This document shows positions 1 through 53,557 of a stretch of DNA of 64,000 bases, piece after piece. The notes below the pieces were generated by a model that was not told the DNA's origin, made no database searches, and worked only from the letters and a program-made list of their open reading frames with translations. Location: contig CAZXUK010000001.1 of the NCBI GenBank assembly GCA_964644045.1, forward strand, positions 5,401-69,400, given 5' to 3'. Source of the stretch: an uncultured Gammaproteobacteria bacterium. Lineage in GTDB: Bacteria > Patescibacteriota > Patescibacteriia > Patescibacteriales > JAGXOH01. The translations under genes were made by a program, and so were the position numbers. Position 1 is the stretch's first letter. The number at the start of each line of letters is the position of its first letter.

Positions 1-124
1 ATTTTTTATGTATTTCAACTTGCGAAGAAACCAGATTAGATAAAACCTTAACTTTATCGCCCCTACCCCCTACCACGGAAGCGGCGGTTTCATCACAGCT
101 GGTCTCAATTCCCAAAATTTTCAT
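1..124 (-). CDS. tsaD: tRNA N6-adenosine threonylcarbamoyltransferase TsaD (Kae1/Gcp family), N-terminal fragment; gene runs off the window start
   Basis: My translation of the reverse strand from the ATG at about 124 gives [41 protein letters not shown]. This is the canonical TsaD N-terminus ([11 protein letters not shown]). Confidence 0.75.
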
Positions 125-340
125 CTTGACTAATTTATAAATAATGTTTATACTATTTTTAGTATTAACATAAATATTTAAAAAAATCCATCCCGGCTAA
201 GGGATGATTTATTTTTAGCAAAGGAAAGGAATATTGGATTCTTCCATTAGGGGCGCACAAGCATTCCGGTAAGAACAATAAAATTCATTATTCAATTCCA
301 AATACTAAATTCATTATTCGTAATTCATAATTTCAATAAT

Positions 341-417
341 GGCCCGTTCGTCTAGTGGTTAGGACGCCAGGTTTTTCAGCCGGAGGCTGACCACCCTCTG
401 GGTGGCATCCTGATAAC
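341..417 (+). pseudogene. 5' part of a tRNA-Glu-like gene with a 30-nt insert in the anticodon loop, truncated in the variable region
   Basis: Acceptor GGCCCGT, D-arm GTCT-AGTGGTTA-GGAC, anticodon stem CCAGG. The loop TTTT[30 nt]CAT is followed by CCTG, then the sequence diverges after ATAAC. Confidence 0.6.
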
Positions 418-431
418 ATAAATATTATTTA

Positions 432-683
432 ATGTGGCACGTATACTTATTAAAAAGTAAGATTAATAACAAATATACTTATATAGGCTACACAGATAAT
501 TTAAAGAAAAGGCTCGGAGAACACAATCAAGGCAAAACAAAATCTATCAAACACAAAATTCCTTTCAAATTAGTATATATAGAAACATACTGCGATAAAG
601 CTATAGCCAGAAAGAGAGAGATAGAATTAAAAAACAACAGTTTTAAGAAAAAAGAATTGTTCGAAAGATTGAATATTATATAA
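432..683 (+). CDS. small GIY-YIG nuclease family protein (YhbQ/UPF0213-like)
   Basis: 83 aa. Motifs YVYLL...YIGYTDNLKKRLGEHNQG...KREIELK match the GIY-YIG pattern (GIY, YIG, R, E, N). Confidence 0.8.
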   Translation: MWHVYLLKSKINNKYTYIGYTDNLKKRLGEHNQGKTKSIKHKIPFKLVYIETYCDKAIARKREIELKNNSFKKKELFERLNII

Positions 684-686
684 TAT

Positions 687-758
687 GCCGCCATCGTCTA
701 GTGGTTAGGACGCCAGGTTTTCATCCTGGTAACCGGGGTTCGATTCCCCGTGGCGGTA
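687..758 (+). tRNA. tRNA-Glu(UUC)
   Basis: Hand-folded cloverleaf: GCCGCCA / GTCT-AGTGGTTA-GGAC / CCAGG-TTTTCAT-CCTGG / TAAC / CGGGG-TTCGATT-CCCCG / TGGCGGT-A. G1.U72 wobble; CCA not encoded. Confidence 0.85.
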
Positions 759-797
759 CTAATAAACATCTTCTTTAATTATCTTTTTGTCAGAAGA

Positions 798-873
798 CCA
801 GGTTTTTCAGCCAGAGGCTGACCACCCTCTGGGTGGCATCCTGGTAACCGGGGTTCGATTCCCCTACGGGTCA
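798..873 (+). pseudogene. 3' part of the split tRNA-Glu-like gene (anticodon stem with the same 30-nt insert, T-arm, acceptor 3' strand)
   Basis: CCAGG-TTTT[30 nt]CAT-CCTGG-TAAC-CGGGG-TTCGATT-CCCCT-ACGGGTC-A. ACGGGTC pairs with GGCCCGT at 341-347 (one G.U). The T-stem has one C.U mismatch. Confidence 0.6.
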
Positions 874-883
874 CAAATAAAAA

Positions 884-908
884 GGTGTCACGAAGTGGCA
901 TCTTTTTT
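884..908 (+). terminator. intrinsic terminator inside repeat unit 1
   Basis: GGTGTCAC-GAA-GTGGCATC hairpin (8 bp including wobbles) followed by TTTTTT. Confidence 0.55.
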
Positions 909-1069
909 ATTTGTGTCCTATGGGGATGAGAACCCCTGATAACCAAAGGTAATAGGCAAACAAAGAGATAAAAATACAAAAAAACTTTAGAGAGCAAAGT
1001 CTAAGCGGTGAGATTTTCATCCAGCCCTTCCCCAAGAAGGGCTGGGCCCCTACGGGTCACAAATAAAAA

Positions 1070-1094
1070 GGTGTCACGAAGTGGCATCTTTTTT
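1070..1094 (+). terminator. intrinsic terminator inside repeat unit 2 (copy of 884-908)
   Basis: Identical hairpin plus T-run, 186 bp downstream of the first copy. Confidence 0.55.
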
Positions 1095-1335
1095 ATTTAG
1101 CTCCTACGGGGATGAGAACCCCTGATAACCAAAGGTGGAAAGAGAAATTAATTTAAATAAATTTGAAAAAGGTTTTAAAATCCAACTAAGCGGTGAGATT
1201 TTCATCCAGCCCTTCCCCAAGAAGGGCTGGGCCCCTACGGGTCACAAACAAAAAAACTGGTCCTTAAAGAATCAGTTTTTTGTATGAACATACCATGGTA
1301 TGTTCAATGGTATGTTCAATGCTTATTTATAAAAA

Positions 1336-2409
1336 TTACTTTAGTTCTTTTTTAAACCAATCCACCCAAGGGATTTGAGAAGGATTTACATTATTCAGGA
1401 TACCCAAATAAAAAGACAACCAAGAGCCGAATTGTAAGACCCGAGCACACTGATTTAGGCGAGATCCTTTTTCTGTTTTATAATCCAAAACTTTAATTCC
1501 GTTTTTCTTTGCTACTTGTTTGGTTAGCTCGCTTCTTTTTTGCACCCGAGGATGATATTTGTCCGAGTCCAAAAATAAAAACACTAAATTCTTCTTGTTG
1601 GCTACGGGATGAGAAAGACTTTCCAATAAATAATGGTTAAGCTCGGGCAAACTTAGGTAATCGGCAAAATTTTTGGAATTCTCGCAAAACTGATTACGCA
1701 GAGTGTGAAGATTGCCTTCTAAAAATTCCGCTCCCACTAAAATAGGGATTTTGCCTTTCAACTCTTGAGCTATTTTTTTAGCCGGATTTTTTTGGCTCTC
1801 GCTCTCAGGACGAAAAATAAAATTATCATCCCGCAACTTTTTGATTATAGACTCCGCTTCTTTTTCATCTAAATTCAGCAGTCCCGCTTTTTCCAAGAGA
1901 ATTAAGAGTCCGAAAATGGAATAGCCCAAACCGATCCTGGGCTGTTCTGAGGGATTATGCAGAGGTTTAAAAATAAATCCGGGAATATTGTCTTTGATCA
2001 TTAATTTCTCCAACTTATTTTTTTCGTGACTGGAAGTAATGCCCATGATCTTGGCTCCGCTTTTTTTTACTTTTTCATAAACACTTAAAGGCTCCTCGGT
2101 ATTACCGGAATAAGAAGAGATAATATACAAGGTCTTCCGGTCTACATAACCGGGCACTTCATATCCCGGAACTATATCCAGGGGAGCTTTAAGCTTATCA
2201 GCCAAACAAGCTTTAATGATCCTCCCTCCCAAATTAGACCCCCCCATGCCGTTCAAAACGATTTTTCTAACTTGGGTGTGTCCTTCGGGAATTCGGACTA
2301 AAGGCGCATCTTCTCTGACTTGTCTGATCTGCTCCGGCAGTAAACCGATTGATTCAGCCACCAGACCCGGATCCATTTTATAAATTTTTTTAGTATTGTC
2401 TAAATTCAT
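1336..2409 (-). CDS. bifunctional phosphoglucose/phosphomannose isomerase family protein (SIS domain)
   Basis: GMGGSNLGGRII and ISSYSGNTEE SIS motifs. The ORF is open to 2469, but the ATG at 2409 (MNLDNTKK) sits directly after a 5' leader motif shared with rdgB. Confidence 0.7.
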   Translation of the reverse strand: MNLDNTKKIYKMDPGLVAESIGLLPEQIRQVREDAPLVRIPEGHTQVRKIVLNGMGGSNLGGRIIKACLADKLKAPLDIVPGYEVPGYVDRKTLYIISSYSGNTEEPLSVYEKVKKSGAKIMGITSSHEKNKLEKLMIKDNIPGFIFKPLHNPSEQPRIGLGYSIFGLLILLEKAGLLNLDEKEAESIIKKLRDDNFIFRPESESQKNPAKKIAQELKGKIPILVGAEFLEGNLHTLRNQFCENSKNFADYLSLPELNHYLLESLSHPVANKKNLVFLFLDSDKYHPRVQKRSELTKQVAKKNGIKVLDYKTEKGSRLNQCARVLQFGSWLSFYLGILNNVNPSQIPWVDWFKKELK

Positions 2410-2572
2410 AGGTTTAATTACAAATTCACAAATCTTGTCACACCTGTCCACCTTGGGCGGAAATATCACAAATTTGTTTTTACATTTTATAATATTAGTT
2501 TAGCAAAAGGTAATTATAATTTCAATTGATCTCTGACTTTGCTTTAAAAAGAAAAAGTGCTAAAATAATAAT

Positions 2573-2812
2573 ATGAAAGATTTAATAAAAACAACTAACA
2601 AAAAAATCAACGGCCTGATTTTAACCCTGTCCGCCACCGGACTGTTTTTGGTTATTCTGGCAATTCTGATTATTGTTACCCAATTCCTCCTGCGCTGGCT
2701 GGTAGGAATAGTTATTCTGGCCATTGCTTTCAGTTTTTTTTATTCCGCCTACCGCATCTGCAGTTTAAAAAAGGAGGCTAAGGAATTCTTGAAAAAATGG
2801 GGTATAAAATAA
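2573..2812 (+). CDS. small hypothetical membrane protein (2 predicted TM helices)
   Basis: 79-aa ORF with two hydrophobic stretches. No recognisable family. Confidence 0.4.
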   Translation: MKDLIKTTNKKINGLILTLSATGLFLVILAILIIVTQFLLRWLVGIVILAIAFSFFYSAYRICSLKKEAKEFLKKWGIK

Positions 2813-2941
2813 ACTCTTTAAAAAGCAGAATATCATTTATATTTTTAACAGCGAACAAGATTCTATAGCTGTTTAAAAAAATAATCTGGTGATTTTTATT
2901 TAAATTTAGAGCATAATCAATGTACAAGTCCATGAACATAA

Positions 2942-2970
2942 TTGACACTTATTAAAGTTTTCTGTACTAT
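2942..2970 (+). promoter_or_regulatory. sigma-70-type promoter for the glyQS leader
   Basis: TTGACA, 17-nt spacer, TACTAT. Confidence 0.5.
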
Positions 2971-2974
2971 TTTA

Positions 2975-3190
2975 ATAAAGGGAGATTGGCACCCTTTAGG
3001 ACAATTAAATAATTAAGGTGGTTTCGCCAAAGGTATGGGCTGATATTGTTTAATCTTTAGGATTAACCGGGCAAGCCCGCCTTCTCCGCCAATCAGCGGA
3101 TTCGGCGAGACAAAGCTAGATGGAACCGCGGGGAAAATCTCGTTCTAGCAATCTAAAAAATTTTGGATTGCGGGAACGGGATTTTTTTAA
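2975..3190 (+). promoter_or_regulatory. T-box leader (glycine-type) with terminator, upstream of glyQS
   Basis: AGATGGAACCGCGG resembles the T-box core (GGGTGGTACCGCG). Its UGGA fits the UCCA end of tRNA-Gly. An imperfect hairpin ATCTCGTTCTAGCAATC...GGATTGCGGGAACGGGAT plus a T-run follows. Confidence 0.55.
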
Positions 3191-3372
3191 ATTTAAAAAC
3201 TTTTTTTAAAAAATGAATTACCAACCTTTGGCCTGATTAGCGCGACTTAAGGGAACAATCACCCTCAGGATCAACCCCGCAAGGTAATAAACCGTAAATC
3301 AAATTAAACTAACAAACCCCGTCCATCTCCTCTCCTTGATAAGTGGAGGATCAAGAAGGGGTTCTCCTAAAT

Positions 3373-41644: not shown

Positions 41645-41931
41645 TTTATTTTTCCTCCTTAATATATAAAAAGTAATTATTGAACAAAATTTCATCTAAC
41701 TGGTTGTTATACGAACTTTTTGCAGATAAGTAGCAAAAATTTAATGGTTATCTGTATAAATAATAAAAAACTGTAAATTTCTTAACCTTTTAAATTGTAA
41801 AAGTTTTTTTGTTTTTATGCAAATAATTTTAGCTAAAATTGAAAAAATGTTTAGTTAATGTTTTATGGCGTTATAACCAAAATACTCCTAATTTTAATAA
41901 ATTAGGAGCATTTTATTCTCTACTTCCTATG

Positions 41932-42004
41932 GGTGGCTACCGGGAGTCGAACCCGGATCGCCGGTGCCACAAACCGGAGTTCTAACCATTGAACCATAGC
42001 CACC
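41932..42004 (-). tRNA. tRNA-His(GUG)
   Basis: Reverse strand: G(-1)-GTGGCTA...CCGGT-TTGTGGC-ACCGG...CGGGTTCGACTCCCG...TAGCCAC-C. Confidence 0.85.
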
Positions 42005-42202: not shown

Positions 42203-42204
42203 AG

Positions 42205-42278
42205 CGCACTCGGCAGGATTCGAACCTGCGACCTACGGCTTAGAAGGCCGTTGCTCTGTCCGACTGAGCTACGAGTGC
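42205..42278 (-). tRNA. tRNA-Arg(UCU)
   Basis: Reverse strand: GCACTCG-TA-GCTC-AGTCGGACA-GAGC-A-ACGGC-CTTCTAA-GCCGT-AGGTC-GCAGG-TTCGAAT-CCTGC-CGAGTGC-G. Confidence 0.85.
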
Positions 42279-53463: not shown

Positions 53464-53557
53464 TGGCGGTGGGACTGGGATTTGAACCCAGGGTCCGTCT
53501 AAAAACGGACACCGCATTTCGAGTGCGGCGCATTAAACCAAGCTCTGCCACCCCACC
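53464..53557 (-). tRNA. tRNA-Ser(CGA), CCA encoded
   Basis: Reverse strand: GGTGGGG...GCCGCA-CTCGAAA-TGCGGT, long variable arm GTCCGTTTTTAGACGGAC, T-arm CTGGGTTCAAATCCCAG, CCCACC-G-CCA. Confidence 0.85.

Follow-up and report, generated by a model that had tools for sequence, protein, structure and literature searches.

Positions 341–873 of the DNA analysed here (a 64-kb stretch of 64,000 nt from contig CAZXUK010000001.1 of an uncultured bacterium; hereafter the window) hold a tRNA-Glu(UUC) gene that is broken within its anticodon into two orphan pieces. Between them lie an open reading frame (ORF) for an 83-aa protein of the GIY-YIG superfamily and a second, intact tRNA-Glu(UUC) gene, and the same 30-nt insert, a double-hairpin element (HP), is common to both cut ends of the resident gene. 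We conclude that this locus is probably a chromosomal homing-type selfish module, which inserts itself into tRNA-Glu genes and brings a substitute tRNA with it. Related loci show the tRNA-gene-specific module to be widespread and apparently undescribed; no literature linking GIY-YIG genes to tRNA-Glu or other tRNA genes in Patescibacteria or Bacteroidota was found, in a search that does not fully exclude a prior description. The parts of the locus are the following.

341–375, + strand: 5′ orphan, positions 1–35 of the resident tRNA-Glu(UUC), recognized from its sequence, its identity with the inner tRNA over positions 8–35 and the cloverleaf that it forms with 837–873.
376–405, + strand: HP copy 1, a 30-nt double hairpin (TCAGCC-GGA-GGCTGA / CCACCC-TCT-GGGTGG) that sits between anticodon nucleotides 35 and 36.
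406–417, + strand: tRNA positions 36–47 after HP copy 1 (CATCCTGATAAC), which close the anticodon stem beneath HP; tRNA similarity stops here.
432–683, + strand: gene for the putative 83-aa GIY-YIG nuclease of the minimal Slx1/UPF0213 type, catalytic domain only, assigned from Pfam, PDB and model matches.
687–759, + strand: inner intact tRNA-Glu(UUC), acceptor stem GCCGCCA/TGGCGGT (ARAGORN; Rfam RF00005, 65.8 bits).
760–797, + strand: spacer, ending in ~16 nt (782–797) left over from the D-arm of the 3′ orphan and now decayed, from repeat family D3.
798–806, + strand: tRNA positions 27–35 (CCAGGTTTT) ahead of HP copy 2, from sequence and repeat comparison.
807–836, + strand: HP copy 2, which differs from copy 1 by one loop base.
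837–873, + strand: 3′ orphan, positions 36–73 of the resident tRNA-Glu, whose acceptor 3′ strand ACGGGTC pairs with GGCCCGT at 341–347.

The 5′ orphan comprises the GGCCCGT acceptor strand, the D-arm, CCAGG and TTTT, and ends with the first two anticodon bases; the 3′ orphan runs through the T-arm and terminates in ACGGGTCA at 873. When rejoined, 341–375 and 837–873 make a 72-nt cloverleaf that ARAGORN calls as tRNA-Glu(UUC), and neither piece alone gives a tRNA call. The two outer pieces thus make up a single tRNA-Glu gene, broken precisely between positions 35 and 36. The inner tRNA-Glu(UUC), presumed to be a functional replacement copy, begins 3 nt past the nuclease stop codon and is identical to the outer pieces over positions 8–63, with a different acceptor stem (GCCGCCA/TGGCGGT versus GGCCCGT/ACGGGTC). 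The whole insert is ~460 nt (376–836), and its contents are the ORF and a tRNA; no tyrosine or serine integrase gene was found in it. Both HP copies lie in a 51-nt repeat (798–848 versus 367–417) with two mismatches, one in a hairpin loop (382 versus 813) and one at tRNA position 43 (413 versus 844), and fainter similarity reaches back to 351/782 (351–417 versus 782–848, 87% over 67 nt, family D3). An earlier reading of the same DNA, made from its letters alone (the original prediction), had listed the split tRNA, the GIY-YIG ORF, the intact tRNA-Glu and the duplication, and all four are present where it placed them. It had also named mis-assembly as a possible source of the arrangement. Mis-assembly is ruled out by five independent contigs that cover the whole structure at 100% identity; altogether the identical ORF is found on eight metagenome contigs from different samples, all eight from this population bear the cassette, and the three others end within the second repeat.

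Elsewhere in the window there are no further copies of the ORF or of the repeat. GC-rich double hairpins number exactly two in the 64 kb, both at this locus, which rules out HP as a dispersed genomic repeat. The window has three other tRNA genes, all on the minus strand (His, 41931–42003; Arg, 42204–42278; Ser, 53464–53557), and neither a GIY-YIG ORF nor a GC-rich double hairpin was found near them. Within this window the module is thus specific to the tRNA-Glu locus.

The same association recurs in other genomes. Homologues of the ORF numbered 165 at E ≤ 0.001, those aligned being typically 57–74% identical, and those with a named source came mostly from Patescibacteria and in some cases from Bacteroidota. 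A scan of one genome per species provided 80 loci, and 93 tblastn-confirmed matches were found among 185,579 species genomes, a patchy distribution over two very distant phyla. Linkage to tRNA genes was counted in the 79 related loci with a near-full-length ORF. A same-strand tRNA starts no more than 40 nt downstream of the ORF in 57 of them, and a tRNA lies within 100 nt upstream in nine more; the contig end is reached in six, and in the other seven tRNA-Glu is truncated, masked or a little farther away. The partner is tRNA-Glu in nearly all loci, with a few divergent members at tRNA-Ser or tRNA-Gln. The search for the cassette in relatives, which the original prediction had proposed, thus found it in 79 related loci of Patescibacteria and Bacteroidota, and the unity of nuclease and tRNA is borne out by their linkage in essentially all of these.

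In most loci the ORF is preceded, at a distance of some 50–90 nt, by an orphan of tRNA positions 1–35, after which come a ~30-nt insert and positions 36–4x. A 3′ orphan downstream of the intact tRNA is present in at least 15 loci; most related loci have no 3′ piece, and the common form is two-part, running 5′ orphan, HP, ORF and tRNA. Among the 39 loci with an anticodon-site 5′ orphan, this orphan equals the inner tRNA over positions 1–35 in 20, and in five more it differs only within positions 1–7, the acceptor strand. The window cassette is collinear with those of four loci (L026, L012, L013 and L040) at 72–75% nucleotide identity, and such alignment over the whole cassette indicates that the architecture is inherited as a unit. 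Other arrangements also occur: a mirror-image form (L036, L042) in the order tRNA, ORF, insert and positions 36–73; a Cytophagales form (L041, L055) broken in the T-loop, in which a unit of terminator, ORF, insert and positions 57–73 is repeated up to three times; tandem ORF units (L027, L056, L075); and nested orphans (L102). Divergent ORFs in L072, L079, L081 and L082 stand beside tRNA-Ser or tRNA-Gln, and double hairpins break the fragments of those tRNAs (in L079, for example, tRNA-Gln positions 1–55 are followed by a hairpin pair), so the family has switched its target tRNA.

HP consists of two adjoining 6-bp hairpins with 3–5-nt loops (consensus TCNSCC-loop-GGSNGA, then YCNSCC-loop-GGSNGR). 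About 100 copies were found across the related loci, nearly all of them exactly at breaks in tRNA sequence. The commonest site, which is that of the window, is anticodon 35/36 (...CCAGGTTTT–HP–CATCCTG); the others are in the T-loop (GGGGTTC–HP–GATTCCCC), in the D-arm (GGTTAG–HP–GAC) and at the acceptor/D junction, and both orientations occur (for example, in L040 at 2903 versus 3005). In 57 loci HP lies no more than 50 nt from the ORF, either 9–45 nt upstream of its start or ~22 nt downstream of its stop, and a few tRNA bases (5–12 nt) are always kept on the element side, where they close the basal stem.

The hairpins covary. Among 32 distinct copies at the anticodon site, both partners have changed in 8 of the 12 hairpin pairs, with a covariation score equalled by none of 500 shuffles; these copies were chosen by perfect stems, and their 100% pairing is partly by construction. 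We therefore also counted sites defined by their tRNA flanks only, independently of stem pairing: among ~50 true inserts, 39 form 12 of 12 Watson–Crick pairs, ~5 have one G–T pair and a few have one mismatch. For HP with the leftover anticodon stem, structure prediction gives a T-shaped three-way junction whichever strand is folded (z about −3.6). The scarcity of G–T pairs, together with the occurrence of both orientations, points to a pairing that would act at the level of DNA. HP is a conserved, covarying, functional-looking element rather than a scar, and the 51-nt duplication, first taken for a target duplication or recombination scar, has as its core this covarying 30-nt double hairpin placed exactly at the tRNA break. 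A longer double-hairpin variant with 7-bp stems and 5-nt loops (38 nt; L012 2224–2261 and L102 2801–2838) occupies the D-arm site of an additional upstream orphan in those two loci, and one locus can thus hold more than one hairpin type.

Three loci preserve the trace of a resident gene that differs from the inner one. In the window, L013 and L080, the outer acceptor strands pair together and differ from those of the inner tRNA: L013 has GGCCCGT/ACGGGCT outside and GCCGCCA/TGGCGGT inside, and L080 has GGCGCCG/CGGCGCT outside and GGCCCCG/CGGGGCT inside, its outer pieces also showing a common ATCAG stem variant that is absent from the inner gene. In the window and L013 the outer and inner tRNAs agree over positions 8–63 and part only in their acceptor strands; taken as a trace of co-conversion that fades with distance from the break, this pattern is not decisive, since tRNA bodies are conserved anyway. 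The outer halves in the three loci represent another allele than the inner gene. Duplication of a single gene on the spot would not give this outer/inner difference, whereas a cassette that has brought its own tRNA into a resident gene would. The proposal of a nuclease cassette in a tRNA gene with a working replacement thereby gains support, the signature of paired outer halves around a different inner gene being repeated in L013 and L080. Nested orphans and tandem arrays fit repeated insertion into a regenerated tRNA, or unequal exchange. Protein identity between ORFs of Patescibacteria and Bacteroidota is ~60%, the two sets are interleaved in a rough tree, and the flanking tRNA sequence matches the host's own type. 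The two distant phyla, the interleaved ORFs and the host-type flanks together argue for horizontal spread into host tRNA genes.

The encoded protein matches Pfam PF01541 (GIY-YIG) over residues 1–72 with E 7.6e-16 and 58.6 bits, against a cut-off of 22.6 bits. Y5, Y17-I18-G19, R27, E51 and E63 are invariant in an alignment of 25 sequences, and H31 and N69 are nearly so. Its best solved relatives in sequence are the UPF0213 proteins BH0048 (PDB 1zg2, E 4.8e-13) and EF2693 (1ywl, E 1.7e-08), followed by Slx1. An AlphaFold2 model (pLDDT 89.8; element order E-E-H-H-E-H-H, with the three strands and flanking helices of solved members) was matched by Foldseek to 1zg2, to the Slx1 nuclease domain (TM 0.70, root-mean-square deviation 2.3), whose chains occupy structural ranks 2–11, and to At-HIGLE, with weaker matches to UvrC. 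1zg2 and 1ywl have been classed in the prokaryotic Slx1 branch as a minimal variant of the domain (PMC1564403). By sequence and predicted fold, then, the protein is assigned to the Slx1/UPF0213 minimal branch of the GIY-YIG superfamily and is a putative nuclease; it is a single domain of 83 aa with no accessory domain. Only a weak, motif-level PADLOC match spoke for membership in a defence system, and no PHROGs family was found for the ORF. A putative structure-specific enzyme that has no recognition domain thus stands next to a conserved branched DNA structure, and HP may accordingly be linked to the substrate that this enzyme recognizes.

In the homing cycle that we favour, the nuclease would make or process a break in an uninterrupted tRNA-Glu gene, and a module-bearing copy would serve as the repair template. 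The conserved tRNA halves (about 35 and 38 nt) would act as homology arms, and everything between them would be copied into the new gene. The insert would bring a complete or partial replacement tRNA, so that an intact gene is regenerated and the host left unharmed; the disruption would cost the host nothing, since the imported tRNA keeps tRNA-Glu supplied. A three-part donor would reproduce the window, with recipient-type acceptor strands outside and a donor-type tRNA inside. The two-part form could arise by deletion between the repeated 3′ halves, and repeated rounds, unequal exchange and deletions could yield the two-part, mirror-image, tandem-array and piled-orphan forms. HP most likely plays one or more of three roles: it may form the branched structure that the nuclease recognizes, it may destroy the target in the displaced halves, or it may break homology and so prevent loop-out.

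Several observations weigh against this reading. Plain homing leaves the conserved shape of HP, its varied sites and its two orientations unexplained. Around the anticodon (8–63) the inner tRNA does not differ from the outer halves, so that a nuclease cutting uninterrupted tRNA-Glu genes there should cut its own replacement too, and how the inner tRNA escapes cutting is unexplained by the homing model. In the 83-aa protein there is no DNA-binding module for long-site specificity of the kind found in I-TevI and Seg proteins. The protein, moreover, lies in the Slx1 branch, whereas the known homing enzymes sit in the other branch, the known selfish GIY-YIG enzymes being derived from the UvrC-like lineage (PMC1564403).

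The mobility of the module, which we infer, meets further objections. No empty site or presence–absence polymorphism was found. The uninterrupted resident tRNA had no exact match in JGI metagenome contigs, and the uninterrupted allele that the original prediction had proposed (341–417 joined to 849–873) was found in none of 94 loci and nowhere in the metagenome collection. Synteny was followed through the neighbouring PGI gene, whose nearest homologues are 62–64% identical and stand in unrelated contexts; no close relative of the host organism was found in the collections searched. The divergence of the cassette from its relatives (72–75% nucleotide identity) is about that of neighbouring housekeeping genes and gives no sign of recent transfer in the lineage. 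A search for carriers gave three distant viral-contig matches and no annotated phage or plasmid.

Variants within populations (L100, L104 and L106) could be assembly artefacts at repeats. In L100 (ENA ERZ27257105 k141_814288), positions 3272–3372 correspond to window 764–864 and then jump to window 750, through a 28-nt repeat (722–749 = 837–864); this end is either an extra 115-nt unit, that is, an unequal-crossover variant, or an assembly loop at the contig end. L106 and L102, from a Roizmanbacteria population with an identical ORF (P0101), agree at 100% over 1509 nt up to the last tRNA-Glu base, past which L106 switches to a differently arranged sequence that is 67–85% identical to L102 (genome ~77%); an assembly chimera formed at the conserved tRNA would explain L106, as would a true recombinant bounded at the module. 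L104 (GCA_001789545.1) differs from population contigs of 100% identity only around 2770–2832 and 3183–3237; both stretches coincide with hairpin-bearing repeats, and the first contains N bases.

Some of these points would sit more easily with a fixed vertical operon, in which an Slx1-like housekeeping nuclease is co-transcribed with tRNA-Glu and the fragments result from local tandem duplication and decay. HP would then be a cis-element of the transcript or locus (a leader, a processing or stability signal, or a replication or recombination site), and gene conversion with the intact tRNA would maintain the homogeneity of the fragments. The absence of empty sites and of a phage or plasmid carrier from our searches, and a cassette divergence like that of housekeeping genes, agree with such an operon; the constant position of HP, always 9–45 nt before the ORF start or ~22 nt past its stop, would fit cis-regulation, and gene conversion could explain why orphans so often match the intact tRNA at 100%. 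We nevertheless think the operon unlikely. Its distribution would have to be reconciled with the patchy spread of 93 matches in 185,579 species genomes of two very distant phyla, and the outer halves in the window, L013 and L080 belong to another tRNA-Glu allele that local duplication does not make. Tandem arrays, mirror-image forms and nested orphans also speak against it, as do the same ORF family at tRNA-Ser and tRNA-Gln with HP-broken fragments and the placement of HP at four tRNA sites in both orientations.

A nucleic-acid-programmed form of homing, which we hold to be somewhat more doubtful again, would make HP the handle of the nuclease and the flanking tRNA bases its guide. An HP-bearing transcript or single DNA strand would pair with the uninterrupted tRNA gene, the looped-out HP would mark the cut, and altered flanking bases would retarget the element. 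Because the flanking bases would set the target, this would explain how near-identical 80-aa proteins come to stand at tRNA-Glu, tRNA-Ser and tRNA-Gln and at four tRNA positions. It would also account for tRNA sequence on both sides of HP, where the 5–12 nt on the element side have no other obvious reason, and an 80-aa catalytic domain is too small for a 20-bp recognition surface. Members that are ~50% identical are tied to different tRNAs or sites with HP always at the homology break, the closest structural relatives of the protein cut branched DNA, and HP with its stem folds as a three-way junction. Yet this proposal is entirely inferential, the near-absence of G–T/G–U pairs and the two orientations favour DNA-level over RNA-level structure, and here too the inner tRNA would be a target.

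A solution at the level of RNA is highly improbable, whether the outer pieces were expressed separately and then united or annealed as the halves of archaeal split tRNAs are, or HP were removed as a small intron from a hairpin-bearing tRNA-Glu precursor: self-complementary hairpins could pair between molecules, and ARAGORN, with its intron option on, can be made to fit a tRNA containing a 30-nt intron to the rejoined pieces, but the forced model turns the identity to tRNA-Ala and is thus an artefact; the intact tRNA-Glu(UUC) at the same locus means that the split gene is not the sole source; the overlapping 51 nt are identical in sense rather than complementary; a 3′ piece is missing from the majority of related loci; and HP splits the anticodon at 35/36, which is no canonical intron site, with no bulge-helix-bulge apparent by eye. 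The split-tRNA alternative of the original prediction falls on three of these facts, the intact gene for the same isoacceptor, the identical overlaps and the missing 3′ pieces. As for introns proper, a full-length hairpin-bearing tRNA-Glu was found in none of 94 loci and nowhere in the metagenome collection, such copies always being fragments, which rules out HP as a simple intron. A group I intron or other known RNA family at the hairpin pieces was sought in Rfam (E up to 10, window 1–1500), where only the intact tRNA was matched; the insert is 30 nt.

If the locus is indeed a homing-type module, an 80-aa nuclease and a 30-nt hairpin pair would have colonized an essential, universally conserved gene in two distant phyla, and would avoid killing the host by replacement, unlike introns and inteins, which do so by splicing. 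Part of the prokaryotic Slx1/UPF0213 family, so far deemed repair proteins, would then join the selfish elements. Should the hairpin and flanking bases give specificity, the module would be among the smallest structure- or homology-guided DNA-targeting systems and in principle retargetable. There are practical consequences as well: metagenome assemblies suffer broken contigs, gaps in scaffolds and perhaps chimeric joins at module loci (L004, L007, L100, L104, L106), and the tRNA fragments left by the module can confuse tRNA annotation in Patescibacteria.

Past the 3′ orphan, the window continues with a further pair of repeats.

874–1059 and 1060–1244, + strand: a tandem pair of ~186-nt units, from repeat families D1 and D2.

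Each unit contains a terminator hairpin (that at 879–907 is bidirectional), an inverted tRNA-3′-like piece (GGGGATGAGAACCCC region), an A-rich stretch, CTAAGCGGTGAGATT, a single CCAGCCC-11 nt-GGGCTGG hairpin and an extra copy of the tRNA 3′ end. This end, CCCCTACGGGTCA, reappears at 1047–1059 and 1232–1244 and had been overlooked in the original prediction. The nearest relative of the ORF, L101, has one homologous unit (about 425–545), which finishes in its own tRNA positions 57–73; no match to the unit was found in related loci other than L101. The units are probably older debris of the same locus or module; alternatively, they may represent another small element, one by which the 3′ end of tRNA-Glu is duplicated. 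At 1285–1318 of the window there is a perfect 12-nt inverted repeat (TGAACATACCAT / ATGGTATGTTCA) with a direct repeat of ATGGTATGTTCA, placed just past the 3′ end of the PGI-like gene (1336–2376, minus strand). In L101, genes with bAvd and reverse-transcriptase domains, resembling a diversity-generating retroelement, lie at 2079–3320, 1.7–3 kb downstream of the module.

Among known systems, the nearest functional precedent for the module is, by analogy, SegB of phage T4, a free-standing GIY-YIG homing endonuclease encoded among tRNA genes (PMC2330249). Its 27-bp recognition site includes the conserved T-psi-C stem-loop motif, and its cleavage biases inheritance in favour of the nuclease gene and the tRNA genes beside it (PMC2330249). 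The likeness lies in a GIY-YIG nuclease gene among tRNA genes in both. SegB, however, belongs to a phage and to the HEase/UvrC cluster, whereas the module protein is chromosomal and an 83-aa member of the Slx1/UPF0213 branch without a recognition domain; SegB also has no hairpin element, split target or orphan fragments, all of which the module has, along with a spare rescue gene.

Homing of introns offers a second parallel. I-Ssp6803I is the enzyme of a cyanobacterial tRNA-fMet intron with an insertion site in the anticodon loop, and in the 'collaborative homing' of cyanophage psbA a free-standing nuclease acts together with an ORF-less intron. As in these cases, the module's insertion lies exactly at a presumed anticodon-loop target, and its nuclease gene stands apart from the short insertion. 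Group I introns self-splice and the interrupted gene works, but HP has no ribozyme by Rfam, and the interrupted copy is dead and is rescued by an extra tRNA. Some integrative islands and prophages target tRNA genes and make good the tRNA segment that they displace; they share with the module the conserved tRNA target, the regenerated intact gene and the displaced fragment as a direct repeat. The module differs from them in having no integrase, an insert of ~460 nt and a structured double hairpin at its junctions, and in breaking the tRNA in the anticodon (or D/T loop) rather than at the 3′-end att core that islands usually use.

As a protein, the module's ORF product resembles the UPF0213 proteins BH0048 (1zg2) and EF2693 (1ywl) in domain, in size and in the lack of an accessory domain. 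Those proteins are regarded as repair factors that are inherited vertically. The module subfamily differs in that it is tightly tied to tRNA genes and behaves like part of a selfish element.

Pieces of archaeal split and multi-intron tRNAs are expressed and spliced through a bulge-helix-bulge, giving the only functional copy. In archaea, as here, tRNA genes are broken at several loop positions by short, possibly mobile inserts, and halves are encoded apart; the module, by contrast, sits in bacteria and beside an intact gene, and its interrupted copies are in every case fragments. Finally, structured DNA ends are known from the T-shaped terminal hairpins of adeno-associated virus (AAV), the subterminal hairpins of IS200/IS605 and the folded attC sites of integrons. 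The module is like these in shape only, with short perfect hairpins at its boundaries, a T-shaped three-way junction and both orientations. AAV, IS200/IS605 and integrons use HUH or tyrosine recombinases and have unrelated sequences, whereas the module pairs its hairpins with a GIY-YIG nuclease.

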